Of a DNA stretch of 64,000 nucleotides, positions 4,507 to 52,427 are shown piece after piece. Location: positions 55,217-119,216 of the IMG/VR virus record IMGVR_UViG_3300047274_000273; one strand, 5' to 3'. The DNA comes from a virus (Duplodnaviria > Heunggongvirae > Uroviricota > Caudoviricetes). The translations under genes and the position numbers were made by a program. Positions within the stretch are counted from its first letter, which is position 1; every line of letters begins with the position of its first letter. The notes beneath the pieces were generated by a model. It was not told the origin of the DNA. It did no database searches and saw nothing but the letters and a program-made list of their open reading frames with translations.

Positions 4507-4746
4507 ATGGCAGATATTGTTAAATTAGATGTTCCCCTTTTTATTAGGTTACTCGAGCTTGCTAGAGAAGAAATCAAGGACGATGCAGACATCCACGATG
4601 TGGCAGAAATCGTTATCAAGATGAGCAAGGCAGGCCCGGTAACTATGGCCAACTACGATGCCATAGTTGAATTTATGAAAAAACAGGGCAGCGATTCCTC
4701 AGACAACGAATTGTCTAGGATTAAAAAATTAGGCGGTGTAGAATGA
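4507..4746 (+). CDS. hypothetical small acidic protein
   Basis: ORF with SD aaggaaagag upstream; no recognisable motif. Confidence 0.35.
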
Positions 4747-5033
4747 GAGTCACTGAGATCATACGGGGAATACTGGATATCATCGATGGAAAAAATATTC
4801 CACGTCCCGACCAAGAAGTTCCCAACGAACAGTTCTACGATGACGATGTTCGCAGGTTTCGTCAGATCGTAGATCTAAAAGATCAAGGTAATGCCACAGA
4901 ATATTCAAATACTCCCAAAGAAGAATATGCAGGTATTGAAGCAGTTACTACAGCAGCCGGCGGTGGCCCTAACAAACCTAAGCACATAGACGATATTCGA
5001 GGCGACAGTATTAGAGTACACGGAGGTAATTGA
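4743..5033 (+). CDS. hypothetical protein
   Basis: ATGA overlap with the upstream ORF. Confidence 0.35.
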   Translation: MRVTEIIRGILDIIDGKNIPRPDQEVPNEQFYDDDVRRFRQIVDLKDQGNATEYSNTPKEEYAGIEAVTTAAGGGPNKPKHIDDIRGDSIRVHGGN

Positions 5034-7185: not shown

Positions 7186-7187
7186 AA

Positions 7188-7811: not shown

Positions 7812-7838
7812 ATATAGTATCTTATTTGGATTCCTTAC

Positions 7839-8273: not shown

Positions 8274-8274
8274 A

Positions 8275-10268: not shown

Positions 10269-10357
10269 GACCCGTTTAATTACGGTGTGTGTGCCCGGCT
10301 GCTGGGCGAGGATGATAGTAGGAGTCGTGCCCGAGGGCATCCTCAAGTGAGCTTTAT

Positions 10358-11005: not shown

Positions 11006-11041
11006 TCCCGTATAAATATCTGTACAAGGAGGGGCAAGACC

Positions 11042-11194
11042 ATGAGACAGAAAAAGCTCGTAATGGAACTGTACAAGGCTTGCTTCGACCACGACGCCAA
11101 GAAGATGGCAGAACTCAAAAAGATCGAGTTCCAAAAAATCTTGAAACGCAAGGCCGAAGGTAAGCATTTTACACACCGCTGGACCGTTGTTCAG
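11042..11194 (+). CDS. small basic protein (50 aa)
   Basis: Strong SD (aaggagg) 7 nt upstream; below the ORF-track cutoff. Confidence 0.25.
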
Positions 11195-11244
11195 ATATAA
11201 TCGATCTGTAACATCTTAAAACTGATGCTGCGGTAAATACTGCT

Positions 11245-12075: not shown

Positions 12076-12150
12076 CCAGGAACAATGCGAAAAGACATTA
12101 TCAACTATGACATATTGGCTTAAATTTGACAGCTTCAGGATCAAGGGTGA

Positions 12151-13161: not shown

Positions 13162-13732
13162 TATCGTAGATTTCTTTCCAGTTCTTGACTTTACGGATAC
13201 CTTCTTGATCGAAGTCCATGTTATGTCCGTGTTCTACGAGCAAGGGTCTAAGACCTACATTTAGACCTGCGACACAATTGGTAAACTTATCTTCAATCCA
13301 CCAATAGTTTTTGCCTCGATACTGCTCAAGAACTTCATCTTTGTCTGCACCTGTTTCTAGGATGATAAATTTGGTAAATGCTGTCTTACCAAATAGCTTA
13401 CAGAGATTCATCTTGCGTAGAGCCTGGGCATTTTCATCTGAACTCATTGATGTGATACAATGGAACACATACCCATGCTCTTCGTGTAGTCTTTTTACAT
13501 AGTACATGGCATCACGCAGAGGGGGCAAGAAACCCATGTGCGCAGATTCATTGAAGATTTTGATTAGTTTTTTTGACTGCTCTTTTTCGATTCCATAGCG
13601 TTTGGCTATGTCATATTTGAACTGCCAATCATCTTGTTTTTGGAAGCCGTGTTGTTCCATCCAAACTGAGAATGCGAACTCCCAATCAAGGAGAACACCG
13701 TCTGCATCGGTTAAAATAATTTTATTTTTCAT
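13145..13732 (-). CDS. HAD hydrolase, 5'(3')-deoxyribonucleotidase-like
   Basis: N-terminal ILTDADGVLLDW (DxDG motif). Served by a consensus promoter that places the TSS on the start codon. Confidence 0.55.
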   Translation of the reverse strand: MKNKIILTDADGVLLDWEFAFSVWMEQHGFQKQDDWQFKYDIAKRYGIEKEQSKKLIKIFNESAHMGFLPPLRDAMYYVKRLHEEHGYVFHCITSMSSDENAQALRKMNLCKLFGKTAFTKFIILETGADKDEVLEQYRGKNYWWIEDKFTNCVAGLNVGLRPLLVEHGHNMDFDQEGIRKVKNWKEIYDTIVAE

Positions 13733-13738
13733 ACTGCT

Positions 13739-13767
13739 ATTATATACTCAGTTAATGATTATGTCAA
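13739..13767 (-). promoter_or_regulatory. consensus sigma70 promoter (TTGACA-17-TATAAT) giving a leaderless transcript for the HAD gene
   Basis: Minus-strand reading: TTGACA (13767-13762), 17-nt spacer, TATAAT (13744-13739). The predicted +1 falls on the ATG at 13732. Confidence 0.6.
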
Positions 13768-13813
13768 CCACTAGGACATTGCCATAAATATTGAACACAG
13801 TAAGGACAGACCA

Positions 13814-14434
13814 ATGTTAGAAACAATATGTGATATACTAGTAGAATCTTATAAACGAAATTGGATTACCAGCAGAGACGGTAATATCAGCATCCGCCAT
13901 CATGATCGAGACCATTTTTACGTAACGCCCAGTGGTGTTCGTAAGCAGACCATGCAGCCCGATCAGTTTAAAAAGATAGCCATAATTAATAGCAAAGATT
14001 GGACTGAATTGCCCTATAGCGATATCAGCATAGGGCTTAGGCCCACAGGAGAAATGCCTCTACATTTTGGCCTCCAGAGAAAAATTCATACGGACGAAGT
14101 TCGTGTCGTAACTCATATCCACCCTACCTATATCGTAGCTGCCATGCATGCTGGTATCGAACTCTGTGAATTAGTCAAAGACTTCCCTGAACTTAGTCGG
14201 TATACTAGAGTAGCACCTAATGTAGGTGATGTACCTCCTATTTCACAAGAACTAGGCGATCAGTGTCACAAAAACCTGGGTTTAAATGAAGAAACTGGAG
14301 AGATTAAGTATGATATCGTAGGAATAAAAGGTCACGGGGTCGTGGCCATAGATTCTACGCCGTGGCGTAGTTTCGAACATATAGAGCGTCTAGAACATAT
14401 CTGTAAGATAGTTTTAGCCTCTGGGAATTATTAA
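13814..14434 (+). CDS. class II aldolase/adducin-family protein
   Basis: SRDGNISIRH, YVTPSGV, VVTHIHPTY. Class II aldolase/epimerase signature. Confidence 0.55.
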   Translation: MLETICDILVESYKRNWITSRDGNISIRHHDRDHFYVTPSGVRKQTMQPDQFKKIAIINSKDWTELPYSDISIGLRPTGEMPLHFGLQRKIHTDEVRVVTHIHPTYIVAAMHAGIELCELVKDFPELSRYTRVAPNVGDVPPISQELGDQCHKNLGLNEETGEIKYDIVGIKGHGVVAIDSTPWRSFEHIERLEHICKIVLASGNY

Positions 14435-15138
14435 TGCTAACAATCTTATATACCCTAGTGATGGTACAAATCACTATTGCTTGTGTTACACTTTATCTAC
14501 ATCGTAGCCAAGCCCATAGATCAGTTCACTTTCATCCAGCGGTCGCACACTTCATGAGATTCTGGTTATGGCTGACCACAGGCATGAATACTCGAGAATG
14601 GGTAGCAGTCCATCGCAAACATCATCAGGCTGCTGATACAAGCGCAGATCCGCACAGCCCAAAAATATACGGTATTTGGCGTGTGTTATTTGGTGGTGCT
14701 CTGTTATATGTCAAGGCCAAGAGAAACAAGATACTTGTCAACGAATTGGGTCATGGCACACCCAGTGATTGGATTGAAGAAAAAGTTTATACTCCCCATC
14801 CTTACTTCGGGATTCTATTGATGTTGGTCATAGACCTTATTCTTTTTGGCCCGGTAGGAATAGTGGTATGGGGAGTTCAAATGCTATGGATACCTTTCTG
14901 GGCTGCAGGTGTAATCAACGGGCTTAGTCATTGGTGGGGTTACAGAGTATCAAATACTAACGATACTTCGAGGAATCTGTGGCCGCTGGCTATATGGATC
15001 GGCGGTGAAGAACTACATAACGGACATCACAGTGACGGAGCGAATGCAAAATTTAGTCAACGATGGTATGAAGTTGACATTGGATGGATATACATTTGTA
15101 TCCTGAGATTTTTTAAGCTAGCTAAAGTTAGGGCATAA
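14434..15138 (+). CDS. membrane fatty-acid desaturase (acyl-CoA/acyl-lipid delta-9 desaturase family)
   Basis: Three His boxes (HRSQAHRS, HRKHH, HNGHH) and hydrophobic spans. Confidence 0.75.
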   Translation: MLTILYTLVMVQITIACVTLYLHRSQAHRSVHFHPAVAHFMRFWLWLTTGMNTREWVAVHRKHHQAADTSADPHSPKIYGIWRVLFGGALLYVKAKRNKILVNELGHGTPSDWIEEKVYTPHPYFGILLMLVIDLILFGPVGIVVWGVQMLWIPFWAAGVINGLSHWWGYRVSNTNDTSRNLWPLAIWIGGEELHNGHHSDGANAKFSQRWYEVDIGWIYICILRFFKLAKVRA

Positions 15139-16794: not shown

Positions 16795-17572
16795 GCTATT
16801 AGAGGGCGGTAATGTATTCAAAGGCCCAGATAAAGAACCGTTGACACGCAGAATTAAGCGTGAGGAAATACCTACCACTATAGGATTCTTAGAGAAAGAA
16901 ACTGGCGTAGACTTTACGATGGACAAGGACGAAGAAGGTGTACCTATTAAGTGGCTAGGTACCACCGGACGTAAAGCTGATTCTGGCGACCTTGATCTTT
17001 CTGTTGATGCCAATGAAGTTGATAAAAAAGAATTTGCAGCCAAACTGATTTCCGTATTCGGCAAAGAATCAGTTAAACTCAGCGGAGACAGTGTTCACCT
17101 AAAAACTCCCATCAACGGAGATCCCAGTAACGGATTCGCTCAAACAGATTTTATGTTCAGCACTAATCCCAAGTTCCAACAGGGAAGCATGCTAGGAGGC
17201 GGCGCCGACAGCCCCTATAGAGGAGAGCATAGACACATCTTATTGAGCAGTATAGCTCGTGCTAGAGGTCTTAAATACTCCCCTAAGTTCGGACTTGTTG
17301 ATCCAGAAACCAACGAGCCAGTACCCGGCGGTGATGATTGGAATACCATAGCCAAACAACTGCTAGGACAGACCGCCACAGTCAAAGACATTCGTTCTGT
17401 AGAAAGCATCACGAACTACATCAAGAAGCTGCCTAACTATGAAGAGCTGATCGCAGCCGCTCAAGAAACACTTGGCAAGTCGGGCATCGAACTTCCTAAA
17501 AAAGAAGCACTAGAACATTATACACCTAATAGTCCGTCCTGGATGCGTAGGATTATTGACATCGTAAAATGA
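16781..17572 (+). CDS. Pol-beta-superfamily nucleotidyltransferase
   Basis: WLGTTGRKADSGDLDLSVD fits the G[ST]...SDLDL minimal NTase signature. Confidence 0.5.
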   Translation: MNQSKLLEGGNVFKGPDKEPLTRRIKREEIPTTIGFLEKETGVDFTMDKDEEGVPIKWLGTTGRKADSGDLDLSVDANEVDKKEFAAKLISVFGKESVKLSGDSVHLKTPINGDPSNGFAQTDFMFSTNPKFQQGSMLGGGADSPYRGEHRHILLSSIARARGLKYSPKFGLVDPETNEPVPGGDDWNTIAKQLLGQTATVKDIRSVESITNYIKKLPNYEELIAAAQETLGKSGIELPKKEALEHYTPNSPSWMRRIIDIVK

Positions 17573-18783
17573 GAGCATTTGAATTTTTAACAGAAGAATG
17601 GAGCCAGAAGTACAAACGCTCTATAAACTGCTCAAACCCCAAGGGTTTCAGCCAGAAGGCTCATTGTGCAGGCCGCAAGAAAAACGAAAGTGTTAATGAA
17701 GCAGAAGCTCCTGCTCCTAAAAAAGTAGGTCGTGAATTTAACCATCTAGAAGATCTAGTGTTCACAGAACCCAAAGGTGCTTTAAAAGCAGTATCTGTTC
17801 TAAAATCAATGAGCCAGGATTCGTCAGATGTTGCTATCAAATGGGACGGTAACCCCACAGTGTATTGGGGTCGCGACGAGGACGGTACCTTCCGTATGGT
17901 AGGTAAGAACAATTGGGGTCGTGAAGAAGGCAAGAGTTCTAGTCCAGAAGAGCTAAAACAGTTTATCAACAGTCGTGGCAAGGGCGAAGAGTGGCGTGCC
18001 AAGTTTGCTGGAGACATGGCAGCGATGTGGTCTGTGTTTGAAAAGGCGACCCCTGCAGATTTCCGTGGTTATGTCTACGGTGATATCTTGTTCCATCCAG
18101 GTAAGCCCTATGAAGGTGCCGATGGACGCATGACCTTCACGCCAAATCAAACCACATATTCAGTAAACGGAAATTCTCAGGTAGGTAGAAAGATAGCCAA
18201 GGCCAAGATAGCTGTGGCTGCACATCAACAGTACAGTTACTTCGGAGATAAGAGTGGAGAGCCGTTCGAGAATCCAGAAATATTTGCAGGCAATCCAGAG
18301 CTGATAGTCTTTGGACAGACCTATGTTAGCCATGTGCCTGCGGTCAATGCAGATAATCTTGGAGCCATAGAAAAAGTAGCTAACAAGAGCAGTTCTAAAA
18401 TCGATCAGTTCCTTGCTCCTATAGCAGGACTCAGCGATCTACAGAACATCATATACACTTATGTAAATGCCAGAGCCAAGGATAAAGCACTAGACAGCAT
18501 AGACAGCAAGGACTTTTTCAATTGGTTAAAGACCAGCAAAGTAAGTCCGGGCAAACAACAGAAAATAATAGATCATCCTCATGCAGAAGCCATGGCTGAT
18601 CTTTTCTACCTAGTCAAAGAGTTAATGAAAGCCAAAAACGAAGTCATCGCTGAGCTCGATCAAGCAGAAGGTGACATCACAGCTACCACGGGCGGTAAGC
18701 CTGGCGGAGAAGGCTATGTCAAGGGCAAAGACAGCGTAAAACTAGTGCCCAGAGATCGTTGGACACCATATCGAGCCGATTAA
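17569..18783 (+). CDS. hypothetical protein with MRAFEF N-terminus (possible nucleotidyltransferase/ligase-like KxDG motif)
   Basis: AIKWDGNP motif; N-terminal MRAFEFL shared with the ORFs at 21901 and 51051. Confidence 0.35.
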   Translation: MRAFEFLTEEWSQKYKRSINCSNPKGFSQKAHCAGRKKNESVNEAEAPAPKKVGREFNHLEDLVFTEPKGALKAVSVLKSMSQDSSDVAIKWDGNPTVYWGRDEDGTFRMVGKNNWGREEGKSSSPEELKQFINSRGKGEEWRAKFAGDMAAMWSVFEKATPADFRGYVYGDILFHPGKPYEGADGRMTFTPNQTTYSVNGNSQVGRKIAKAKIAVAAHQQYSYFGDKSGEPFENPEIFAGNPELIVFGQTYVSHVPAVNADNLGAIEKVANKSSSKIDQFLAPIAGLSDLQNIIYTYVNARAKDKALDSIDSKDFFNWLKTSKVSPGKQQKIIDHPHAEAMADLFYLVKELMKAKNEVIAELDQAEGDITATTGGKPGGEGYVKGKDSVKLVPRDRWTPYRAD

Positions 18784-18870
18784 GGCACCTATAACCATAT
18801 TTTTCTCCAAAATCAATAAATAAGATTGCCAGTCCCGGAGCGGGACTATAGATAAAGAGGAGAAAATATC

Positions 18871-19293
18871 ATGGCAGCATTTACAAGAGTAAATCCGAAC
18901 CCAACTACTACAGTTGACGTTCTATACGATACACTACAAATCCGTGCATTCAGAGTAGAAGCCCCTGGTGTAGACCTAGAGTCTGGTGTTATTGGTGGTA
19001 AGATGGAGCGTCTAGCTCAGGAGTTTGGTACAACCGGTGCGATCATCGAGTTCGATGCAGACGCCTTCGTTGTTATTGGCGATAGCCACGCCCTAAGCAG
19101 CAATATCATTGCTCGTCGTGCAGACAAAGTTCTAGGCGGTACAGGCGCATTGGTTAACTACGTTGCTGAAAACGGTAACCTAGGCACAGTAGGTTCAGGC
19201 TCCGCAGTAGCAGGTACAGTTGCAGCTCCAGTTACAACAGCTATCGTTGAAGTTGGTTCTGTAACATCACTATTTGGTCTAAGCTCAACCTAA
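18871..19293 (+). CDS. hypothetical small protein, probably highly expressed
   Basis: Strong SD (aaagaggag) and a strong terminator directly downstream. Confidence 0.45.
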   Translation: MAAFTRVNPNPTTTVDVLYDTLQIRAFRVEAPGVDLESGVIGGKMERLAQEFGTTGAIIEFDADAFVVIGDSHALSSNIIARRADKVLGGTGALVNYVAENGNLGTVGSGSAVAGTVAAPVTTAIVEVGSVTSLFGLSST

Positions 19294-19323
19294 TAGCGTA
19301 TTTTCCTAGGGATGGGAAGATGA

Positions 19324-19349
19324 GGGCGGATTTATTCCGCCCTTTTTTT
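19324..19349 (+). terminator. rho-independent terminator
   Basis: gggcgga-tttat-tccgccc followed by ttttttt. Confidence 0.8.
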
Positions 19350-19372
19350 ATCTGCGTAAATAGTAGCATATT

Positions 19373-19768
19373 ATGCCAAGATACCAGATAATTACCTTAG
19401 TTGACATCACACGCAGTCAAGCCCATCGATCTGAGACCGATCGGATCAAAGTTGGTCAGCAGGCGAATTTCAATTCTCTAATACAGGCCATCGGTATACG
19501 AGCCAATCCTTCTTGGTATCAAGATCCTAAGATGCATACCGGCAGATTACCCTTACCTCTTACCGGCAAATGCAATCATTGGACCTGGGAGTTTGACATT
19601 GAGCGAGATGATATATACAAAAAAGACGACGATCCAGTAGCATTGCTCAAAGAAGATCTCCATGGCGTACCGATAATAGATCAACTAAATAATTCAGCAG
19701 ACATACATCCTTCGGCGTTTCAAACAGAAGGTAAAAATCCTAATACCTGGATATGTATTTTGGAATAA
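19373..19768 (+). CDS. hypothetical protein
   Basis: ORF only. Confidence 0.35.
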   Translation: MPRYQIITLVDITRSQAHRSETDRIKVGQQANFNSLIQAIGIRANPSWYQDPKMHTGRLPLPLTGKCNHWTWEFDIERDDIYKKDDDPVALLKEDLHGVPIIDQLNNSADIHPSAFQTEGKNPNTWICILE

Positions 19769-19864
19769 CTCTGCTAAATACGATATCAAAGGCAAATCAC
19801 TAGGCATTCTTCATTAGGCACATGTCCTTAACGGGAACTTGACTTAACCAAGGAGACGGCTTAG

Positions 19865-20185
19865 ATGGCCACAGTAGCAGAACGAGTCAGTGTAGTAGAA
19901 GTAAAAGTCACTAACCTAGACGAAAAACTCGACGACCTAAAAGTAGATGTAAAAGAACTGCACGATTGTTTAGATCGTACAGGCGATAATCTATCTAGAA
20001 CTCTATCAGATATGAGAGCAGAAGCTACCAGTCAGCACGATCAGCTAGCCGGAAAGATCCAAGAATTAGAAAAATCCAAAGACAAGTTAATGATGTATGG
20101 AATGATTGGATTAGCATTCATAGCAGGTCTAGGCTGGACAGGACAGGTTAATATACAGACGATCTTCAGGTTTTTTGGTATTTAA
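19865..20185 (+). CDS. hypothetical coiled-coil protein with C-terminal TM helix
   Basis: SD aaggagacgg; C-terminal MMYGMIGLAFIAGLGW hydrophobic span. Confidence 0.4.
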   Translation: MATVAERVSVVEVKVTNLDEKLDDLKVDVKELHDCLDRTGDNLSRTLSDMRAEATSQHDQLAGKIQELEKSKDKLMMYGMIGLAFIAGLGWTGQVNIQTIFRFFGI

Positions 20186-20202
20186 AATATACCCACTTAA
20201 AT

Positions 20203-20224
20203 AAGGACCATAGGTCCTTTTTTT
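20203..20224 (+). terminator. rho-independent terminator
   Basis: aaggacc-ata-ggtcctt followed by ttttt. Confidence 0.75.
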
Positions 20225-20644
20225 ATGACACAACTTTCTAAGAAATTAGAATCACTGATCAAGAATTCCAAAGAGATTTTGCCTGTAAAAACAGAGCAGG
20301 GAATTCTGGTAGGCAGTATTTTAATTGTCAGCAAAGGACCTTTGAAAGATTTATATCATGATCAGAACTGTATCTACAGTGATGTTAGTCTAAACAAGAT
20401 AGCTATTAGGTTAGCCAACATGCTGGCCAGAAGCGGACAAACATATCAGACTGATAAAATTTACAGGGCCGATCAAGAATATGGACGATGGTTTGCCGAC
20501 AGCCAGATGCTGAGGAATCAGTATCAGCGAGCTGTAAATATTGGTAACTTTGAAAAATCAGATACACTATGGGCTAGATACTGTGAAAGCAGGAGCAAAA
20601 CCGTAGCAGCTAAAAACCTAGCTGAATTTTTGGCCAACGTTTGA
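20225..20644 (+). CDS. hypothetical protein
   Basis: ORF only. Confidence 0.35.
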   Translation: MTQLSKKLESLIKNSKEILPVKTEQGILVGSILIVSKGPLKDLYHDQNCIYSDVSLNKIAIRLANMLARSGQTYQTDKIYRADQEYGRWFADSQMLRNQYQRAVNIGNFEKSDTLWARYCESRSKTVAAKNLAEFLANV

Positions 20645-20675
20645 ATAAATATAGTATCAATCTGGACCCTTTATT

Positions 20676-21626
20676 ATGAAAACCACTGACTTATTTGCAA
20701 ATAACAGATCTTCTAAGAAACTTAACGAATCCCTACAAAAGGCCTTCGGAAAAAGTATTGATCTAGAAAAGTTCACCACTGAGCAGCTAGAAGATGCTAG
20801 GAATAAACTACGCACCCAGATACACGATGTGCGTTCTAACAGCAACTTCAACGAAACTGTAGAAAACGAAACTCTAACACAAGCCCAGTGGATGTTGGAT
20901 GCTATCGTTTCTGAACTAGCAGAACGTCAAGAATTTATCGTAGATAAGACCGGTGAACAAGTTGATGAAGTAAGTCCTCCGGGATTTGCAGGCACAGTGA
21001 AAGCTATGAAGAAACACAAGGAAGTTGATAATCCTTTTGCACTAGCATGGCACATGAAAAACAAAGGTTACAAGAGTCATAAAAAAGCAGATGGCTCTGA
21101 CAAGAAAGAATCAGTCGAAACAGGAGAAGAAATGACTAAAGTCACAGAAGGTGAGATCCAGCAAGCGTCTGCGATCGTTACCGCAAAAACAATGGTTGAC
21201 AGAGTAGGTCGTTGGATTGAAGAACTAAGTGGCATGGAGAACGACACACTCCTACAGTTAGGCGATTCTATCCGTGATGAGATGGGCTCAGAGCAGGCAA
21301 AGAATTTTATCTCTGCTGTAGCTCCAGCGATCCAGCAAGCTCTAGAAAATCTAAAGACCACACGCGAAACTCTAGCCACAGGTGTTCGCACACTCACAGG
21401 TGAAGAACAGGGTGCTGAGATGTTGGGTTCGGAACCCGGAGCCGAAGAAGGCGGTGATGATATGGCCGCAGCAGCTCCCGATGAAATGAACATGCCTGCT
21501 GAAGAGCCAGCAGCAGACGATTTTGCCGCAGCGGAACCGGCAGCAGGCGGAATGGGCGATGCTGGCAGAGAACAGCGTGAAAGCATTCAATTTGAAAATC
21601 GTCTACTGAAAGTTCTAGCAGGATGA
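20676..21626 (+). CDS. hypothetical acidic helical protein (scaffold-like composition)
   Basis: Highly acidic, low-complexity A/E/G-rich C-terminus. Confidence 0.35.
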   Translation: MKTTDLFANNRSSKKLNESLQKAFGKSIDLEKFTTEQLEDARNKLRTQIHDVRSNSNFNETVENETLTQAQWMLDAIVSELAERQEFIVDKTGEQVDEVSPPGFAGTVKAMKKHKEVDNPFALAWHMKNKGYKSHKKADGSDKKESVETGEEMTKVTEGEIQQASAIVTAKTMVDRVGRWIEELSGMENDTLLQLGDSIRDEMGSEQAKNFISAVAPAIQQALENLKTTRETLATGVRTLTGEEQGAEMLGSEPGAEEGGDDMAAAAPDEMNMPAEEPAADDFAAAEPAAGGMGDAGREQRESIQFENRLLKVLAG

Positions 21627-21904
21627 GATTCCAAGACGTTGCATACGAGGGCGACTTTTTAAAGATTAAAGAGCTTGCCCCGACTGTCGGAGCACCTGCA
21701 CCCGGTGCAGCACCTGCTCCCGGACAGCCAGCTCCACAGCAGGCTAAACCCGCAGCAGGATTACCTGGAGGACAGATGGATCCGGCCCAGGCTGCACAGG
21801 CGGTTAAAGATCGTGCTGAACAGAAAAAGCAACTACAAGATCAGATCAAACAATTAGAGCAGCAGATAGCTGACGCAAGAAAAAGATTAGCGAGCCTAGG
21901 ATGA
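21623..21904 (+). CDS. hypothetical Pro/Ala/Gln-rich protein (MRFQDV N-terminus)
   Basis: ATGA overlap with the upstream gene; low-complexity PAPGAAPAPGQPAP followed by a coiled coil. Confidence 0.35.
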   Translation: MRFQDVAYEGDFLKIKELAPTVGAPAPGAAPAPGQPAPQQAKPAAGLPGGQMDPAQAAQAVKDRAEQKKQLQDQIKQLEQQIADARKRLASLG

Positions 21905-22275
21905 GATTTTTTGAATTTGCCGGCGACGGCGACACTGGCGATAAGTTTGTAATGGTTCTTAGGAACTATATTGGTCGTGCTGCCAGCAAAAAATCTCCAG
22001 CCAAACTGAATTGGAACGGACTAAATCAAGTCCTTAAAACCAACGGCTTTGAATTAACCGCTGACTATGAAACTTTCAAGGCTATCTACGATTCAAATCC
22101 TGCCATACAATCAATGGTCAAAAATTTCAATGACGACGGAATAGAACTCAATGTTCCGGGCGCACCAGAAGAACAGCCCAAGGGTGACGGAACACAGACA
22201 CCCCAGGACAGTCAAGCAGCCGTAGATAAAATAGCCGCTTCAGCTGCTCCCCAACAATTAGCCACTCAGGCTTGA
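21901..22275 (+). CDS. hypothetical protein with MRFFEF N-terminus
   Basis: ATGA overlap with the upstream gene; N-terminal 18 nt identical to the ORF at 51051. Confidence 0.4.
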   Translation: MRFFEFAGDGDTGDKFVMVLRNYIGRAASKKSPAKLNWNGLNQVLKTNGFELTADYETFKAIYDSNPAIQSMVKNFNDDGIELNVPGAPEEQPKGDGTQTPQDSQAAVDKIAASAAPQQLATQA

Positions 22276-22307
22276 CACGATGAAAATTCTGTAGTAATAT
22301 ATACAGA

Positions 22308-23009
22308 ATGACTAATCAATTTACACCGCCTCCATTCGTTGAACGGTTCCAATATAAGAACTGTACTCAGATCAACGACCCTGTAACCAAAAAACGAGTT
22401 TACCTTACTCCCGACGGAGAAAGTCTTCCTTCAGTGACCACTATCCTTTCGGCTACAAAGGATATGACACACCTAAACGAATGGAAGAAGCGTATAGGTG
22501 AAGAAAAAGCCAAACAGATTACCACAGAAGCCGCAGGAGTGGGCACAGCCATGCACAGTAATCTAGAAAGGTTTATCGCAGGCATGCAGAGACAACCAGG
22601 CAATAATCCTGTACATGTGCAGGCCAATGCCATGGCTGATCAAATAATAATTAATGGACTTGTCCATGTTAACGAAGTTTGGGCCATGGAACAGAGTTTA
22701 TATTTTCCTGGACTGTACTCGGGAACCACCGACCTAGTAGCAGTGTATAAAGATAATCCTAGCGTCTGCGACTACAAGCAGACCAATAAGCCTAAGAAAG
22801 AAGAGTGGGTCGAAGATTATAAAATTCAGCTGATCGCTTATATATTAGCACATAATGAAGTCTACAGCACAGACATCCGTGAAGGCCACGTGTTTATGTG
22901 CAGTCGTAACTGTGAATATCAGCAGTTTGATTTATGGCCCTCAGACTTCAACAAATATCAAGATCTGTGGCTGGGCAAAGTAGAAGAATACTACAACAGT
23001 TTAAGATAA
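22308..23009 (+). CDS. PD-(D/E)XK family nuclease (phage recombination-exonuclease-like)
   Basis: GTAMH...E, GTTDLV, CDYK. D..E.K catalytic triad arrangement. Confidence 0.5.
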   Translation: MTNQFTPPPFVERFQYKNCTQINDPVTKKRVYLTPDGESLPSVTTILSATKDMTHLNEWKKRIGEEKAKQITTEAAGVGTAMHSNLERFIAGMQRQPGNNPVHVQANAMADQIIINGLVHVNEVWAMEQSLYFPGLYSGTTDLVAVYKDNPSVCDYKQTNKPKKEEWVEDYKIQLIAYILAHNEVYSTDIREGHVFMCSRNCEYQQFDLWPSDFNKYQDLWLGKVEEYYNSLR

Positions 23010-23034
23010 ATACCCTATAACGGGAAATTTATCT

Positions 23035-24624
23035 ATGGCTGTCGTACAGATCTCTAAAATACAAGTCCGCAGAGGACAGAAATTATCAGGTATAGGCATA
23101 CCTCAATTAAGTTCGGCCGAATTTGCATGGGCTGTTGACACGCAGGAATTATACATCGGCAACGGCAGTGTTGCTGAGGGCGCACCTTATGTGGGCAACA
23201 CCAAGGTCCTAACCGAACACGACAATATTCTAGAACTAGCATCTAGCTATAGATTCGCTAGTGTAGATCCTAGCATTTCTCTCAGCATTTCTCGTACCCT
23301 ACAGAGTAAACTAGATGAGTATGTGAGTATATTAGATTTCGGAGCAGTACCAGACGGCTCTACAGATTGTTTGGCCAGCTTCCAGAATGCGCTAAATCAG
23401 CTGTTTAGAAATCCCGATGACAAGTTTAAGAAAACACTGTTGATACCAAACGGTGTATATCTACTCACAGGAAACCTAAATGTTCCTAGCACCGCTAAGA
23501 TCGCAGGAGAAACCAGAGATGGTGCTGTATTAGAAATAGGTGACAACAACATTCTTTTTGTGACCGAAGACGGCGAAGGTGTGGCAAATTTCAACAGCAG
23601 CAACAGACCAAGAAATGTTTCTATTTCAAACCTAACCATCAGCCATAATCTAGGCGAGCTAGTACTCACTGGCTTGGCCGATAGTTCTGTTACCGGAGTT
23701 AGATTTAAATCTAGCTATGTGCTTGGCGACTCCATTGGAGCAGTTGAATCTCATCCTGCTTCTATATTCTGGGAAAATTCTTTACCGGGAACTAAAGTAA
23801 CAGACATTCGCATCGACGATTGTTTATTCGAAAGCACAGCATTGGCTATTAGGAGTGATCAGATCACTGTTGACTCTAGTTCTCCTCCTAATTTTGAAAC
23901 ACATATAGATATTACCAACTGTAAGTTCTACGTCTGTGATTCTGCTATCGTGATCAACGGCATAGCATCACAGGGCAATAAGTGGCATGTTGATCATTGC
24001 CATTTCGAAGAGATATCTCAATACGCTTTTAGAGCATCAAACGGTCGAGGAACGTTGATCAGATACTGTACACTGACCAACTGCGGCAACTTAACCAACA
24101 CAGCAGCATACCCAGTCAGCGAAATGATCTACTTTGGCGAAAGCGAAGGTAACAGAGTCATAGAGTGTTCGACTAACAGACACCAGTCGGGCGGTATCGT
24201 GTCTGTGAGCACTGTTGATGCTAAAGTAGAAGTATATAACTCTAGTCTAACATCACTGAATGATCAATACTATTCTGATATCTTTTTATCAGACAGTTTT
24301 AGACCGTTGGCCGTATTATCAGCTTTCAATAGGTTTACATATGTAGACTATACTCTTAGATTGAACAATCATGTTAGAGCCGGTAGACTTACTATCATGG
24401 TTGATGCTACACTAGGAGAATATAGTTTCGCAGATAATTATACCTATTCAACACCTTTCGCAACATCCCCAGGAGGAGTTCTAATGACAAACTTTGAATT
24501 TCAAGCAGAATTAAAAGACAATGACCTAGACAGCGGTATAGAAACCCTATTATTGTCATACCAGAACCCTATTAGTACTGGCGCTATCGGAACGATTTCC
24601 TACTCTGTGACCTACGGTGTTTGA
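23035..24624 (+). CDS. right-handed beta-helix (pectate-lyase-like) fiber or tailspike protein
   Basis: N-terminal IQVRRG...ELYIGNG motif seen in phage fiber proteins; repetitive N/S/T-rich beta-helix-like body. Confidence 0.45.
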   Translation: MAVVQISKIQVRRGQKLSGIGIPQLSSAEFAWAVDTQELYIGNGSVAEGAPYVGNTKVLTEHDNILELASSYRFASVDPSISLSISRTLQSKLDEYVSILDFGAVPDGSTDCLASFQNALNQLFRNPDDKFKKTLLIPNGVYLLTGNLNVPSTAKIAGETRDGAVLEIGDNNILFVTEDGEGVANFNSSNRPRNVSISNLTISHNLGELVLTGLADSSVTGVRFKSSYVLGDSIGAVESHPASIFWENSLPGTKVTDIRIDDCLFESTALAIRSDQITVDSSSPPNFETHIDITNCKFYVCDSAIVINGIASQGNKWHVDHCHFEEISQYAFRASNGRGTLIRYCTLTNCGNLTNTAAYPVSEMIYFGESEGNRVIECSTNRHQSGGIVSVSTVDAKVEVYNSSLTSLNDQYYSDIFLSDSFRPLAVLSAFNRFTYVDYTLRLNNHVRAGRLTIMVDATLGEYSFADNYTYSTPFATSPGGVLMTNFEFQAELKDNDLDSGIETLLLSYQNPISTGAIGTISYSVTYGV

Positions 24625-25039
24625 TCTATTTGGTAATAATAGATTAACCAAATGGAAAGAAATACGCGATGAGATCGAAACAGCCACTGACCCTTTGACG
24701 TTGGTAGCTGAACTCTGGGCGAGAGCGCCTTTGGTTAATCCTTTTCTAGAACCTACGAATCCAGATTCATGGCCGGACCCATGGCATTTGGTATTAGATG
24801 ATAGGTATGATGACCTTGCAATCGTAATAGGGATGCTGTATACTATAAAGTTAACACAGCGGTTTATGGACAGCGATTGCGAGATACATATGTCTGTACG
24901 TGACGAAAAGTTAGATCCAGAATTCTTTTTGATCGTAGATGGCAGGCTAGTATTGAACATAGAGCCAAGAAAAGTCGTTGATAAGAGCCAATTAAACTAC
25001 GATTCAAAGATAATTTGGTCCGGGAAAGCTATACAATAA
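24617..25039 (+). CDS. hypothetical protein
   Basis: ORF only. Confidence 0.35.
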   Translation: MFDLFGNNRLTKWKEIRDEIETATDPLTLVAELWARAPLVNPFLEPTNPDSWPDPWHLVLDDRYDDLAIVIGMLYTIKLTQRFMDSDCEIHMSVRDEKLDPEFFLIVDGRLVLNIEPRKVVDKSQLNYDSKIIWSGKAIQ

Positions 25040-25061
25040 ATATCAGACCAAGGTAAAAAAA

Positions 25062-27395
25062 ATGAGCATAACAGTAATTAAAAGAAACGGAACGAAAGAA
25101 CTATTAACGATTGAAAAATGGCAGGCTCAGGTAAACAAGGTCTGTAAAGGTATAGCTGACGTAAGTCAGTCAATGATTGAAATCAAAGCGCAGGTAAATT
25201 TTTACGATGGTATCACTACAAAAGAAATCGATGAGATAACTCTTCGAGCCATCGTCGATCTCATCGATGTAGAACATAATCCAGATGTTGGTCATACCAA
25301 CTATCAATACGTGGCAGGCAAGCAAAGACTCAGCATGCTACGAAAAGATGTATATGGTTCCTACGAACCGCCCCATCTATACGAACTAGTCAAAAAAAAT
25401 GTAGCCGTGGGACTGTACACTCCTGAACTACTAGAGTGGTACAGTGAAGATGATTGGAATCGCATGAACGACATCATCGACCACAGCAAAGACGAAGACT
25501 ATTCTTATGCAGCCATTGAGCAGTTAATTGAAAAATATCTAGTACGTAATCGCGCTACTAAAGAAATTTATGAAACACCCCAGGTCAGATACATGATAGC
25601 GGCTGCTACGGTATTTCACAAAGAAGAGCCCAACACAGCTCGTATGCGTTACATCAAGGAGTATTATAATGCAGCTTCAGACGGTCTATTTACTCTCGCT
25701 ACTCCTGTTCTTGCTGGCCTTGGCACTCCCACTAAGCAGTTCAGTAGTTGTGTGCTCATTCGCAGTGATGATGATCTTGACTCCATTTTTGCTAGTGGCG
25801 AAATGATGGCCAAATATGCCAGCAAACGTGCTGGTATTGGTCTGGAGATTGGACGTCTAAGATCGCTAGGTAGCCCCATCAGAGGCGGCGAAATCATGCA
25901 CACCGGCATGATTCCCTTTTTGAAGAAATGGTTTGGTGATTTAAGGAGTTGCAGTCAAGGTGGTATTAGAAACGCATCTGCTACAGTTTTTTATCCTATT
26001 TGGCATCATCAGTTTGACGACCTCATCGTTCTTAAGAACAATCAAGGAACTGAAGAAACTCGCGTTCGACACATGGACTACGGAGTTGTACTATCAGCGT
26101 TCTTTTGGCGTAGGTTTAAAAATAAAGAAAATATTACTTTCTTTGATCCTAATGAAGTGCCTGATCTCTACGAAGCATTTTACAAAGACACAAAATTATT
26201 TGAAGAATTATATGTAAAATATGAAAAGCGCCGCGACCTACGTAAGAAAGTCATGGGTGCTGAAGAAGTTTTCAAGGGTGGTATACTGAAAGAACGCACA
26301 GACACGGGTCGCATCTATTTGGTGTTTATTGATAATGTAATGAATCAAGGACCATTCGATCCTGAATATCATACGATATATCAGAGTAACCTGTGCTGTG
26401 AGATCCTATTACCCACACGTCCATTCAAACGACTCGACGACGACAGTGGTCGCATAGCGTTATGTACACTGGGATCTATCAACTGGGGTGCGTTCCGAAA
26501 TCCAGAGGATATGCGTAGAGCCTGTAGGATTCTACAGCGTAGCCTGTGTAACATCCTTGATTACCAGGATTTCTTATCGATACAGAGCAAGCTGTCAAAC
26601 GATGAAATCCAACCGCTGGGCATCGGTGTTACTAACCTAGCCTATTGGCATGCGAAGAGGAGTATCAAATATGGCGACAAGGACGCATTGGCAGAAGTTA
26701 AAAGTTGGATGGAGCATCAGGCCTTTTACCTTACGGAAGCGACCGTTGAACTCGCAAAAGAAAGAGGCAGATGCAAAGACTCAGACAAAATCTGGTACGG
26801 AAGAGGAATCTTCCCCTGGGAAAGAAGATCGCAAGGTGTTAACGAGCTCGCTGATTTTTCGCCCGAACTCGATTGGGAATCACTGAGACAGGAGATGAAA
26901 ACTCATGGTGTACGAAATGCTACTCTTATGGCTATTGCTCCAGTTGAGTCTAGCTCTGTTGTTATTAATAGCACAAATGGAATAGAAATGCCCATGAGTC
27001 TGATCTCAACTAAAGAAAGCAAAGCAGGATCGTTTACACAGGTCGTGCCTGAGTACCACAAGTTGAAGAACAAATATCAGTTGATGTGGGATCAAAAAGA
27101 CTGTTCAGGATATCTCAAGACTGCGGCAGTATTAGCGGCCTATGTTGATCAGAGCATTTCAACAAATACATTTTATAATCCGGCACACTTCCCGGATCGC
27201 AAAGTACCAACTACATTGATCGCTAAAAATCTAATGCAGGCTCAACTATGGGGTATTAAAACGTTCTACTATAGTTTAATTAACAAAGCAGGTAGTAAGA
27301 GTCAAGATCTTACACCCGAAGTACACTACAATGGTTTTCATAATGAAAGAGAACTAATCGAAGACGATGCCGACTGCGAATCTTGCAAGTTGTAA
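25062..27395 (+). CDS. nrdA: ribonucleoside-diphosphate reductase large subunit (class Ia, with ATP cone)
   Basis: N-terminal ATP-cone (VIKRNGTKE); active-site NLCCEI and C-terminal CESCKL thiol pair. Confidence 0.9.
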   Translation: MSITVIKRNGTKELLTIEKWQAQVNKVCKGIADVSQSMIEIKAQVNFYDGITTKEIDEITLRAIVDLIDVEHNPDVGHTNYQYVAGKQRLSMLRKDVYGSYEPPHLYELVKKNVAVGLYTPELLEWYSEDDWNRMNDIIDHSKDEDYSYAAIEQLIEKYLVRNRATKEIYETPQVRYMIAAATVFHKEEPNTARMRYIKEYYNAASDGLFTLATPVLAGLGTPTKQFSSCVLIRSDDDLDSIFASGEMMAKYASKRAGIGLEIGRLRSLGSPIRGGEIMHTGMIPFLKKWFGDLRSCSQGGIRNASATVFYPIWHHQFDDLIVLKNNQGTEETRVRHMDYGVVLSAFFWRRFKNKENITFFDPNEVPDLYEAFYKDTKLFEELYVKYEKRRDLRKKVMGAEEVFKGGILKERTDTGRIYLVFIDNVMNQGPFDPEYHTIYQSNLCCEILLPTRPFKRLDDDSGRIALCTLGSINWGAFRNPEDMRRACRILQRSLCNILDYQDFLSIQSKLSNDEIQPLGIGVTNLAYWHAKRSIKYGDKDALAEVKSWMEHQAFYLTEATVELAKERGRCKDSDKIWYGRGIFPWERRSQGVNELADFSPELDWESLRQEMKTHGVRNATLMAIAPVESSSVVINSTNGIEMPMSLISTKESKAGSFTQVVPEYHKLKNKYQLMWDQKDCSGYLKTAAVLAAYVDQSISTNTFYNPAHFPDRKVPTTLIAKNLMQAQLWGIKTFYYSLINKAGSKSQDLTPEVHYNGFHNERELIEDDADCESCKL

Positions 27396-49809: not shown

Positions 49810-50367
49810 ATGAATCTAAAAGAACTCACTCACGAACAACACAGAAGGGCCGAAACTCGTCCTTTTGTCAAGGTACTATTTTCAGGTAATGTAAATCCTA
49901 AGATTTATGCGACCTATCTAAAAAATCAGCATCCTATGTACGAAATCTTAGAAGTCTGTGCCATGCCGCATGGACTACTAAATGGACTATCCGAAATACG
50001 CAGAGCACCGGCGATACTCGAGGATTTCTCCGAACTATGGGGAGATTCAGATGAAAAGCCATATATGTGTCCTGTAGTAGATGATTATATCAAATACATT
50101 CTCGGTATCAAGGATAACCCAGAAAAATTAATGGCACATATCTATGTTCGTCATATGGGAGATCTCAGCGGCGGACAGATGATAGCTAAACGTGTTCCCG
50201 GTACCGGTAAGTATTATCAATTCGGCGATTCTCCGGAAAAGATCAAAGAAGCTATCAGATCAAAACTAGATGATAGTATGGCTGAAGAAGCCAAAGTCTG
50301 CTTTGATTTTGCCGCTAGATTTTTCGACGAAATGATGGAAGTGGTAAAATTATATGACACAGAGTAA
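49810..50367 (+). CDS. heme oxygenase
   Basis: LKELTHEQHRRAETRPFVK...NPKIYATYL: the heme-oxygenase N-terminal proximal helix with conserved His. Confidence 0.7.
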   Translation: MNLKELTHEQHRRAETRPFVKVLFSGNVNPKIYATYLKNQHPMYEILEVCAMPHGLLNGLSEIRRAPAILEDFSELWGDSDEKPYMCPVVDDYIKYILGIKDNPEKLMAHIYVRHMGDLSGGQMIAKRVPGTGKYYQFGDSPEKIKEAIRSKLDDSMAEEAKVCFDFAARFFDEMMEVVKLYDTE

Positions 50368-51040
50368 GGTCTGGGATACACTGATAGAAATACAAACTCT
50401 ATTAGAAGATTCTTTTAACCGCACAGGTAAAGAAGTATTCGAGCCAGGAATGGATCGTTTCAATCAGCCGGGTTGGGTAAATCGTGTCTGGACCAGTGAC
50501 AGTTATCGTAGAGCTCATATCGATGTAGTCGATGCCCGATCCACAAAGGGCCTTTGGATGATGCACTGCTGTATCTTCCCACATATCCATAACCCGGCAC
50601 CCATATTTGGTTTTGATGTTATCGCAGGTAAGAACAAAATCACAGGTTGTTTTCATGATTTTAGTCCCGCAGGTGATAGCGAGCATCACCTAATCGATTG
50701 GTTCGCAGATGAAGCCAGTAGATTAGAGTGGAATAAAACCCGTAAACTTCCCGAGTGGGCGGAGCGTATTTTTACAGGTAGTATGATAGCTGCCGGTAAT
50801 GTACAAGATGAAGCTGAACTAGAACAGCTCACAGATCTTGTAAAATTAACCACTAAAGTCTATCTACAGCACGTGGGCGATACGAATCATACTGCAAAGA
50901 ATACTACCTTTAATCAAAATTTCTACGCCCAAAATCAAAAAATGAATCCTCATACTCCTAAAGTAATGGCTAGCCTAGGCCTGAACGAAGAGGATGTACA
51001 GGTGTTTATACAGGATTGTCTGTTCCCAGAGATCCGATAA
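50354..51040 (+). CDS. ferredoxin-dependent bilin reductase (PcyA/PebS/PcyX family)
   Basis: FDBR family layout with central GFDVIAG and conserved His/Asp positions (HIDVVDA, HDFSPAGD). Overlaps the ho gene by 14 nt. Confidence 0.7.
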   Translation: MTQSKVWDTLIEIQTLLEDSFNRTGKEVFEPGMDRFNQPGWVNRVWTSDSYRRAHIDVVDARSTKGLWMMHCCIFPHIHNPAPIFGFDVIAGKNKITGCFHDFSPAGDSEHHLIDWFADEASRLEWNKTRKLPEWAERIFTGSMIAAGNVQDEAELEQLTDLVKLTTKVYLQHVGDTNHTAKNTTFNQNFYAQNQKMNPHTPKVMASLGLNEEDVQVFIQDCLFPEIR

Positions 51041-51050
51041 ATACTCTGTT

Positions 51051-52427
51051 ATGAGATTTTTTGAATTTAATCTACACGAGTCATCTAGAGGAATCCTATT
51101 TCGTACAGTAGGAGATCCCTTTAAATCCACTGCGGACCCTAATAAAACACTGACCTATGCAGGATCGCAGACATTTCCCGCCCCAGTTCCGGGCCAAGGT
51201 GCAGCTCAATTTCCCGATCCTGAAACATTTAATCAAGAAGTCGCTGCTGCTGAAAAAAAGTTTCCGGGGATCACATGGACTAATAAATCAAATGCTTCGA
51301 TGCGAGCATTTGCTGTGGTTACCTTAGACGATCCTGTCGCAAAGAAGAAGGTACATTTTGGTAGATTTTTCAAAGAAATATCACCGGACATGGCAGGTAA
51401 ATGGAAAAATGACGGTATACCCGGATATAGTCTAGAAATTAAATCTTCAAAGAAATCTAGATCGGGTCTTAAGCCCAACGATCTAATTCCATTAGGGCAG
51501 CAATTTCCAAACCCACAGGCACTTATAGAAGCTCTAAAACCAGATTTAGATCCTGCTATCAAAGCAGGATTGACAATGATAGTTGAAAAGAAACTACCAG
51601 TGTTTAATGTTGATGCTAGCATGGAAGCAGCTATTAGAGATGACCTAGGGGAAATAATCGCTCCCATGGCACTATGGCAAGGCATGATATCTGCAGAAGC
51701 AGAGTCAGCTAGAAAGTTTTTGTTGAAAACAACACCATGGAGTGCCTGTGCTATAACATTTTCATCAACTAAGAATGCAGGCTTGATTGATAGCTATGTT
51801 AAACCTCCAAAAGGCGTAGCTGTTGGTATTTCTAGTAAGGGTGCAGAAGGAGCTAAGGCATCTGCATCGAACATATGGGCAGGTGTTGAATTGCTACGTT
51901 CTACAGGACAACAAGATGTTGTCGATCAATACCCAGAAGCTGTTCATGTATTAGAAATGATCAAGCGAGAATCTCAATACCGAGGACCTATGGTACTAGG
52001 TACAGAATATGGTTTTCTTACTGGTCAAGACGAAACATTGATCAACCAGGCAATCAAGCAGGGAATGCAAAAACTACCTCCAGGACCAGAATGGGAAAAC
52101 ATAGGTGCATTAATGAAAAAATTTGCTCCTAGAGACATGTCTAAATCTAACTATAACATAGGGTATCATGCTCTTGCCGGATTGGCAAAAATGGTACAAG
52201 AAAAAGTCAACAGTAGTGTTCCAAAGTTTAGTGAAGCGTGTATAACATTCCTAAATAGTTCTCCATTATTACAGATACATCTGTATACCAAAGCATCCGG
52301 TAATACTGTTTCAGTAACCGGTTTCAAAACAATATGGCCTCCACAGTTCAAAGGATCCGTATCTCTCAATGCCGGCAAGAGTTATTATGCTACCGGTGTC
52401 ATAAACAAGTTCGCGTTTAGTTGGTAG
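51051..52427 (+). CDS. hypothetical protein with MRFFEF N-terminus
   Basis: Start chosen at ATGAGATTTTTTGAATTT, identical to the start of the ORF at 21901. Confidence 0.4.
   Translation: MRFFEFNLHESSRGILFRTVGDPFKSTADPNKTLTYAGSQTFPAPVPGQGAAQFPDPETFNQEVAAAEKKFPGITWTNKSNASMRAFAVVTLDDPVAKKKVHFGRFFKEISPDMAGKWKNDGIPGYSLEIKSSKKSRSGLKPNDLIPLGQQFPNPQALIEALKPDLDPAIKAGLTMIVEKKLPVFNVDASMEAAIRDDLGEIIAPMALWQGMISAEAESARKFLLKTTPWSACAITFSSTKNAGLIDSYVKPPKGVAVGISSKGAEGAKASASNIWAGVELLRSTGQQDVVDQYPEAVHVLEMIKRESQYRGPMVLGTEYGFLTGQDETLINQAIKQGMQKLPPGPEWENIGALMKKFAPRDMSKSNYNIGYHALAGLAKMVQEKVNSSVPKFSEACITFLNSSPLLQIHLYTKASGNTVSVTGFKTIWPPQFKGSVSLNAGKSYYATGVINKFAFSW

Follow-up and report, generated by a model that had tools for sequence, protein, structure and literature searches.

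A short, portable N-terminal leader on unrelated phage proteins: a likely equivalent of the T4 capsid-targeting sequence

The leader and its carriers in the window

The 64-kb stretch of DNA analysed here (64,000 nucleotides (nt), positions 55,217 to 119,216 of the IMG/VR virus record IMGVR_UViG_3300047274_000273; hereafter the window) encodes a short N-terminal leader, MRFFEF or MRAFEF, on proteins that are otherwise unrelated. Exact matches of ATGAGANNNTTTGAATTT were found at three positions, 17569, 21901 and 51051, all on the + strand, and all three are the starts of long open reading frames (ORFs): 17569-18783 (404 amino acids, aa), 21901-22275 (124 aa) and 51051-52427 (458 aa). In 100 dinucleotide-preserving shuffles of the window ATGAGANNNTTTGAATTT was not matched once. 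When 180 nt around each copy were aligned, the identity was limited to 18 nt and the flanks could not be aligned, and when the proteins were clustered by BLAST minus their first 12 residues, the 404-, 124- and 458-aa proteins formed separate clusters. The initial annotation of this DNA had proposed that three dissimilar proteins share a start conserved at the nucleotide level, and both parts of that proposal are borne out. Of the sizes it gave, 124 and 404 aa were right, and 459 aa should read 458. The program-made ORF for this last protein begins upstream, at the in-frame ATG 50994, and the preceding gene ends at 51040. Since a start at 50994 would overlap the preceding gene and all homologues start at MRF, 51051 is the true start. 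A fourth MRFFEF (ATGAGGTTCTTTGAGTTT) at 9480-9497 (-), the start of a 48-aa ORF, was judged to be due to chance because it lies antisense and codon-aligned to a real gene at 9138-10268.

For the protein encoded at 51051..52427 (+), a predicted model points to a restriction-endonuclease-like (PD-(D/E)XK) fold. Only residues 1-11 of this confident AlphaFold model (pLDDT 89.4) fall below 50 and are disordered in it; they correspond to the leader as far as LHE↓S (here and below the arrow marks a putative cleavage site). The model and the comparison with homologues together place the leader and its putative site, MRFFEFNLHE↓S, at 51051..51080 (+). Homologues down to ~35% identity start with M[RK]xx[EDN][FIL], followed by 1-12 variable residues, always by [LIV]xE, and then by the invariant SRGxL[FY]R; examples are MRFFEFNLHE↓SSRG, MRDLLNLLDNVLME↓KSRG, MRVIDIISE↓SSRG and MKIREFIQESKLIIE↓GRG. 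An ADP-ribosyltransferase like T4 Alt, proposed from the 'LFR' motif, was rejected since the order of the motifs did not fit and the fold matched restriction endonucleases.

This gene occupies a hypervariable slot. The upstream border of the slot is a conserved gene at 50354..51040 (+), which is 70-74% identical across contigs and which in L004, L006, L017, L052, L056, L060, L067 and L117 is likewise followed by an MRFFEF cargo gene, a different one each time. Six mutually unrelated MRFFEF cargos are found there in different contigs: besides the 458-aa family these are families of 431 aa (hhalign probability 0.2%), 389 aa and 373-376 aa (the last in inverted orientation), a protein of 464 aa (hhalign probability 2.9%) and one more in L067. 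Each has a TAAATA element as well as the leader, and the flanks of the slot are otherwise syntenic. In the window the element is an ATAAATA at 51037..51043 (+), resembling a T4-type late promoter and located 8 nt before the ATG of 51051 with no Shine-Dalgarno sequence; it is found before other slot cargos too. Judged from this arrangement, the slot shows the architecture of the T-even internal-protein loci, in which the genes vary and the capsid-targeting sequence (CTS) alone is conserved (PMC3012670). A phage-encoded DnaK-like Hsp70 gene lies just upstream of the slot, at 46806-48695.

The gene at 17569..18783 (+) encodes a DUF6267 protein (Pfam PF19782, E 4.7e-23), and a protein identical to it was found on a 178-kb contig. 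Its leader and putative site, MRAFEFLTE↓E, span 17569..17595 (+). Homologues retain MR[AF][FW]E[FIL][LI]xE, with [LI]xE at residues 7-9 in nearly all of the best 120, and _16 of the cultured Methylophilales phage Melnitz belongs to the same family. Directly after the first site (LTE-9) comes a 35-aa Cys/basic module (EWSQKYKRSINCSNPKGFSQKAHCAGRKKNESVNE; 17596..17700, +) that ends in a second site, VNE↓A. An [LIV]xE site lies on either side of this module (WSxKYKxSIxCxxPKGFSQKAHCAGRKK), and DUF6267 homologues occur with or without it. N-termini or small ORFs in T4-like cyanophages match the module at 70-80% identity, and in Bellamy gp122 (L002 3001-3156) it is free-standing, between terS and terL, as an ORF of 51 aa that has a leader of its own (MKSFKQF...). 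A further copy lies at L001 2695-3123. The 500-aa versions of DUF6267 (L007 8006-9505 (-), L028, L029 and L096) are fusions with the downstream gene that retain an internal MRAS[DE]F leader at ~residue 385. Ligase-like motifs in DUF6267 (KWDG, GDLLY, GGEGYV and IKLVxR) were seen by eye only; the assignment as an ATP-dependent ligase or nucleotidyltransferase was dropped, as there was no match to a PDB sequence or profile and no hhalign match to T4 Rnl2.

The remaining copy, at 21901..21918 (+), opens the gene for the 124-aa protein (21901..22275, +), which is the last gene of a late operon at 20676-22275. The family has more than 1000 homologues and is very conserved, with a mean column identity of 82%. 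The MRFFEF start is kept in 118 of the 120 best homologue clusters and in 78 of 80 loci fetched by protein similarity, and no [LIV]xE follows it in the window protein. The AF2 model (pLDDT 48) has no confident fold and no known family was assigned; tblastn of the 124-aa and 458-aa proteins against cultured phages returned no match. This protein may be an uncleaved core component.

The operon is headed by a late-promoter-like ATAAATA at 20645..20651 (+). Its first gene (20676..21626, +) encodes an acidic 316-aa protein (D+E 19%) with the leader MKTTDLF and the site KKLNE↓S (E18). This protein matches PHROG 14154 'virion structural protein' and, weakly, the 'structural protein' A4_53 of the E. 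coli jumbo phage A4, ...KLNE↓S being common to both. The gene at 21623..21904 (+) encodes a 93-aa protein (46% Pro+Ala+Gln) which does start, as initially annotated, with MRFQDV and which has a putative site at LKIKE↓L (E17). The leader, written in varied codons, is retained by its 58 homologues in the loci, and [LIV]xE is present at residues 8-22 in 98% of these. The composition of these two neighbours, acidic and Pro/Ala/Gln-rich respectively, had earlier been described as scaffold- or internal-protein-like, a view that the leaders and [LIV]xE sites on both of them support. The reported ATGA overlaps with an upstream stop are present at 17569, 21623 and 21901 and absent at 51051. A 96-aa protein starting with MRVTEI (4743..5033, +) is encoded in a late operon together with a cyanophage-type virion structural protein (5263-6597). 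Since it has no [LIV]xE at residues 8-22, its membership is uncertain.

In Escherichia phage A4, a block at L293 245412-253771 ('structural protein' genes, an exonuclease and a fibre-like protein, ending at ribonucleotide reductase) is syntenic with window 20676-27395. A4_54 begins MKFSDLTE and has the same genomic position as the 124-aa family; as a homologue of that family it is unsupported (hhalign probability 0.2%). In Asteriusvirus phAPEC6, of the same genus as A4, a T4-type 'prohead core scaffold and protease' (gp227) is among the virion proteins, and the phage has an inner body that is as yet uncharacterised (PMC7247149).

An ATAAATA or TAAATA element stands at the head of operons at 4482 (4507-6597, which contains 4743), 16489 (TAAATA; operon ending in 17569), 20645 and 51037. 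The window contains 13 copies of ATAAATA, which is the core of the T4-type late promoter, and 8 of them lie ≤30 nt upstream of a same-strand gene start. Across the whole window there is no enrichment of the T4 late-promoter octamers TATAAATA and ATAAATAC, so that only position relative to gene starts is informative. Judged by the promoter motif, the carrier genes appear to be late genes. TAAATA stands 6-8 nt before an ATG with no Shine-Dalgarno sequence at 11234, 42965, 49797 and 51038 (+) and at 4471 and 39717 (-), a spacing that suggests leaderless or very short-leader late mRNAs at such starts.

Spread of the leader and the putative cleavage site

At least 119 IMG/VR contigs contain the exact 18-mer, and in nearly every case it opens a substantial ORF. 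In the loci of these contigs, the ORFs that start with it form 12 mutually unrelated BLAST clusters, and its carriers include DUF6267, peptidoglycan-binding and GH19 lysin-like proteins and a GP88-domain protein. A further 18 clusters have variants of the leader written in other codons, which brings the total to at least 30 unrelated families. As an unbiased sample we used the other ORFs of the 18-mer contigs with the ascertained motif ORFs removed, and among these M[RK]xx[ED][FILV] starts were found in 152 of 1661 (9.2%), compared with 3 of 6222 internal Met (0.05%). Since unselected ORFs are enriched, 18 further clusters carry the leader and its codons vary, the tag is selected at the peptide level and is portable.

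The [LIV]xE motif downstream of the leader was counted once per family, with the Glu at residues 8-22 and the motif present in most members. It was found in 16 of 27 leader families, compared with 61 of 383 control families of the same contigs (Fisher p 1.4e-6); 30 residues further in, the same leader families had it in 3 of 27. The Glu is mostly residue 9-10 or 17-18, and the residue that follows it (P1') is most commonly Ser or Ala. The site lies 8 to 18 residues from the start, and in some families it is missing. In the 458-aa and DUF6267 families the motif sits at the border of the conserved body. The same placement relative to known domains can be followed in other carriers: a Fe/Mn superoxide dismutase (SOD) starts MRLNEVTLHE↓A and has its Pfam domain from residue 19, an M23 peptidase starts MRFREFRVVE↓A, and the domains of the DUF6267 protein and the P-loop kinase of Melnitz start at residues 18-20. 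The leader is an add-on to ordinary domains. At L075 5767-6324 (-) and L099 5575-7586 (-), a Fe/Mn SOD, an M23 peptidase and an SGNH+PG-binding+GH19 protein are found with the leader and an [LIV]xE extension.

The leader does not have the form of a Sec, Tat or lipoprotein signal, since the residues after the tag are polar or acidic (NLHESSRG, AGDGDTGD, LTEEWSQKYK) and there is no hydrophobic h-region. We also rejected a connection of the tag with the CsgF/CsgG secretion genes nearby, because the tag is not a Sec signal and its carriers occur at many other loci.

Capsid targeting and its relation to known systems

From these sequence comparisons, we think it reasonably probable that MRFFEF/MRAFEF (M-[RK]-x-x-[ED]-[FILV]) serves this phage lineage as a capsid-targeting propeptide, that it has a cleavage site of the gp21 type and that it is the functional counterpart of the T4 CTS (MKTYQEFIAE). 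Tagged proteins would be made late, from T4-type late promoters, and the N-terminal tag would bind the scaffolding core of the assembling prohead, so that the protein is enclosed as the shell forms. A prohead protease of the gp21 family would then cut after the first [LIV]-x-E, 8-18 residues in, which would mean after LTE-9 in the protein from 17569 and after LHE-10 in that from 51051. This cleavage would free the mature protein inside the head, to be ejected with the DNA, and carriers with no site, such as the 124-aa protein, would stay uncleaved. That the tag binds the prohead core, that a gp21 homologue cuts it and that the proteins reach the virion and are ejected with the DNA are all steps that we infer. 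Since the tag is short and stands behind a conserved promoter and start region, new cargo genes could be swapped in by recombination, as after 50354-51040. The initial annotation had already likened the shared start to the T4 CTS as a targeting or processing signal, and this is largely supported by its conservation and portability, the [LIV]xE motif, the add-on position, the late motifs, the slot and the T4-like lineage.

The lineage points to a T4-like phage of the Kyanoviridae type. The 444-aa late protein at 5263-6597 matches the 'virion structural protein' in 173 records, almost all from cyanomyoviruses, with up to 50% identity, and the N-terminal module of the DUF6267 protein is common to T4-like cyanophages (Kyanoviridae). 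A near-identity DNA search of 17000-25000 against cultured phages returned no match. At 52498-60788 the window has a CsgF/CsgG/FecR/F5-F8-type-C/CHASE2-guanylate-cyclase cluster whose gene order recurs in the T4-like marine phages Melnitz and HTVC008M. Since gp21 belongs to the T4-like core genome (PMC9026906) and the lineage is T4-like, a protease of the gp21 type would be expected in this genome. Melnitz has an annotated prohead core serine protease, and a scan for relatives of it returned close relatives of Melnitz only. When T4 head proteins and the whole Melnitz proteome were searched by tblastn against the window and the 119 motif loci, a head-gene match was obtained only in L107. This contig has portal, protease and capsid genes; it was rejected as an MRFFEF contig with gp21, because its internal MRFFEF is a chance occurrence and the contig is unrelated.

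In T4 the CTS is found on IPI, IPII, IPIII and Alt, and the prohead protease gp21 cleaves it off (Mullaney & Black 1996, reviewed in PMC9026906, PMC3012670). Its first 10 residues suffice to package a protein, with residues 4 and 7 important for targeting and residues 8 and 10 for processing, and it may be the route by which T4-like phages incorporate diverse proteins (PMC9026906). In the T4 record, ipII and ipIII both start MKTYQEFIAE and are nucleotide-identical there, including the ribosome-binding site, and other head proteins also have [LI]xE at their starts (gp24 MAKINELLRE, gp21 MNEPQLLIE and gp22 MLKEQLIAE). Like the T4 CTS, the leader described here is a tag of ~10 residues at the extreme N-terminus of unrelated proteins, with nucleotide identity between copies; it has an aromatic residue 4, an acidic residue followed by F/I/L, and [LI]xE at ~residue 9-10. 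Late genes, variable cargo at conserved loci and a T4-like lineage are further points in common. The L/I-x-E lies at residues 7-10 in the 17569 and 51051 proteins, in a motif too short for a statistical test of homology with MKTYQEFIAE. Unlike in T4, the distance to the site ranges from 8 to 18 residues and the site is absent in some families. The cargo set, known here from sequence alone, is also far larger than that of T4 and is dominated by enzymes (restriction-endonuclease-like fold, DUF6267, SOD, M23 and GH19 lysins).

A closer parallel in lineage is offered by cultured marine T4-like phages (Melnitz _15 to _18 and _118, Bellamy gp122 and S-SM2 SSM2_108), which have a leader with [LI]xE and are of Kyanoviridae type. 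In Melnitz, as in the window clade, leader and [LI]xE are found on adjacent unrelated genes, which start MQGFKTFLSE↓A, ...YITE↓D (DUF6267), MKKFSELTSELIE↓R (then very basic) and MKKFSEIIE↓A (cytidylyltransferase), and a kinase elsewhere in the genome starts MKTFAELQE↓G. DUF6267 and the Cys/basic module are shared between these marine phages and the window.

The giant phages phiKZ, 201phi2-1 and SPN3US are similar in that their head and ejection proteins have N-terminal propeptides ending in x-x-E, which are long and have (S/A/G)-x-E or A-x-E as the site cut by a protease related to gp21; moreover, SPN3US gp53 and gp54 have identical N-termini on diverged paralogues, which have been likened to the CTS (PMC5694885). 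They differ from the present case in that their propeptides are mostly >100 residues, have a small P3 residue and do not form a short tag portable across families. Encapsulin cargo-loading peptides are short terminal peptides that direct diverse enzymes into an HK97-fold shell. As these are usually C-terminal, unrelated in sequence, not removed by proteolysis and not viral, the likeness is one of analogy only. 'MRFFEF' was found in no paper, 'capsid targeting sequence' together with cyanophage in none except a T4 review, and the literature search found no description of such leaders outside T-evens and giant phiKZ-like phages, nor in Melnitz or cyanophages. The kind of system is known, and what we describe is arguably a variant of it, the new elements being the clade-specific consensus and an unusually broad, enzyme-rich cargo set.

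Several observations weigh against equivalence with the T4 CTS. The most common carrier has no site: [LIV]xE at residues 8-22 was found in 0 of 70 members of the 124-aa family. The leader itself reads MRFFEF rather than MKTYQEF, with Arg for Lys and one residue fewer before E-[FIL], and Melnitz and the cyanophages, unlike the window clade with its shorter MRFFEF, use the T4 spacing (MKKFSEI, MKTFAEL, MKSFKQF). No head module was found in the window and the 10-kb flanks of its own contig, and no gp21-type protease gene could be tied to an MRFFEF contig among the window, the flanks and the motif loci. Some of the cargos (SOD, kinase and cytidylyltransferase) are not obvious virion proteins. Furthermore, the loose pattern M[RK]xx[ED][FILV] alone is not diagnostic, since it also fits T4 rI.-1 (MKFSDF; L122 820-1206 (-)) and T4 UvsY (MRLEDL; L123 16915-17328 (-)), which are non-head proteins, and the GMP-reductase-like protein of the window at 45066 (MRIEDE). 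Finally, part of the signal acts at the RNA or DNA level, since codons 2-5 are conserved beyond what the peptide needs (see below).

Alternative readings, wider meaning and neighbouring genes

The tag could instead be read by other machinery, as a site for a phage Hsp70/DnaK, as a degron for a phage or host protease, or as some other assembly or compartment signal. Being short, N-terminal, hydrophobic and basic, it would resemble chaperone- or protease-recognition motifs. A DnaK-like gene near the slot, a ClpP/NfeD-like gene at the window edge and enzyme cargos of a cytoplasmic type would be in keeping with such a role. We consider it unlikely, however, since only proximity ties DnaK or ClpP to the tag, whereas [LIV]xE and the T4-like lineage point specifically to processing of the gp21 type. 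Some carriers are moreover homologous to annotated virion or structural proteins, and the absence of an h-region argues against Sec or Tat.

It is also conceivable, and in our judgement distinctly unlikely, that the conserved start is mainly a translation-initiation device at the RNA level (AUG AGA UUU UUU GAA UUU), with the peptide as a by-product. Codon counts in the 80 loci of the 124-aa family fetched by protein similarity gave, for codons 2-5, AGA in 80 of 80, TTT in 77 of 78, TTT in 78 of 80 and GAA in 80 of 80, and in 46 distinct genes these codons are ~100% AGA-TTT-TTT-GAA. Equally invariant Arg, Phe and Glu in the bodies of the same genes, in contrast, use mixed codons (AGA 26-45%, TTT 28-50%); genome-wide usage is AGA 33%, TTT 60% and GAA 78%. 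Since codons 2-5 are fixed and the body codons are mixed, the first ~15 nt are under a constraint beyond the peptide, and the ATGA overlap accounts for the A at +4 only. Several carriers have TAAATA 6-8 nt before the ATG with no Shine-Dalgarno sequence, and an unstructured A/U-rich start would suit coupled or nearly leaderless mRNAs, three carriers in the window being in ATGA overlaps. Nevertheless, the peptide pattern persists with other codons, for example in ATGCGAGTTATAGAAATT, ATGAAACTTCAAGAATTC and MRDLINL in the 458-aa family, and an initiation device leaves unexplained the enrichment of [LIV]xE 8-18 residues downstream, the variable linker that ends at a domain border and the internal MRAS[DE]F in fused genes. 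The simplest reading of the nucleotide constraint is probably that an A/U-rich start favours initiation in addition to the function of the peptide. The earlier suggestion of a translation-initiation signal therefore agrees with the constraint on codons 2-5, but not as a replacement for that function.

That the shared start is a recombination cassette and nothing else, carrying a peptide with no function, is very unlikely. Six unrelated genes stand behind one promoter and leader in the slot, the start is nucleotide-identical, and the internal-protein loci of T-even phages behave similarly (PMC3012670). On the other hand, 18 nt would be very short for homologous exchange, leaders with other codons retain the peptide pattern, and [LIV]xE and the placement at domain borders are protein-level features. 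The initial annotation had offered a recombination cassette as a possibility; this accounts for the promoter and leader that flank swapped cargos but is hardly the sole function, and the exchange of cassettes more plausibly follows from the tag being a modular targeting signal. Chance resemblance or a recent local duplication, for which one could cite the mere three copies in the window and the evidently fortuitous MRFFEF at 9497 (-), has virtually no probability left, being refuted by the 0 of 100 shuffles, the unrelated flanks, the hundreds of homologues and the at least 30 families.

Returning to the capsid-targeting propeptide, a bolder picture can be proposed tentatively. Uncultured but abundant T4-like phages of aquatic habitats (~160-180 kb, with some contigs to 370 kb) might load a large and quickly exchanged arsenal of enzymes by means of the clade tag and inject it as first-strike effectors; the same tag might tune the translation of near-leaderless late mRNAs, and the uncleaved 124-aa protein might nucleate loading. 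The arsenal could then comprise, again as a speculative proposal, the restriction-endonuclease-like nuclease, DUF6267 (possibly ligase-like), Fe/Mn SOD, the M23 and GH19 hydrolases and small basic Cys peptides.

If the leader is indeed a capsid-targeting propeptide, the CTS principle, which has been worked out only in T-even coliphages, would extend to the ecologically dominant marine and freshwater T4-like phages. M-[RK]-x-x-[ED]-[FILV] followed by [LIV]-x-E within ~20 residues would then flag packaged and injected proteins, so that the location and time of action could be assigned to hundreds of 'hypothetical' phage proteins, such as the nuclease, SOD and hydrolases. Hypervariable cargo slots would be hot spots of arms-race evolution, and a natural short tag would possibly be available for the engineering of protein delivery in T4-like phages other than those of E. 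coli. The interest of the finding, which we rate as moderate, would grow were proteomics of virions to bear out the packaging and injection of nucleases, SOD and lysins.

The rest of the window contains further genes of note. The region 1-15138 is dense in sugar and lipid genes, including a cupin, a HAD phosphatase, a cytidylyltransferase, a PfkB kinase, an epimerase, an aminotransferase, a GT4 glycosyltransferase, a class II aldolase and a fatty-acid desaturase. The start of the window (16-345, +) lies inside the gene for a 196-aa ClpP/NfeD-like serine protease (PF00574; cf. L207 9414-10004). An SPFH/Band-7 gene is located at 31614-32411, 31 kb from this protease gene; NfeD-SPFH pairs are common in bacteria.

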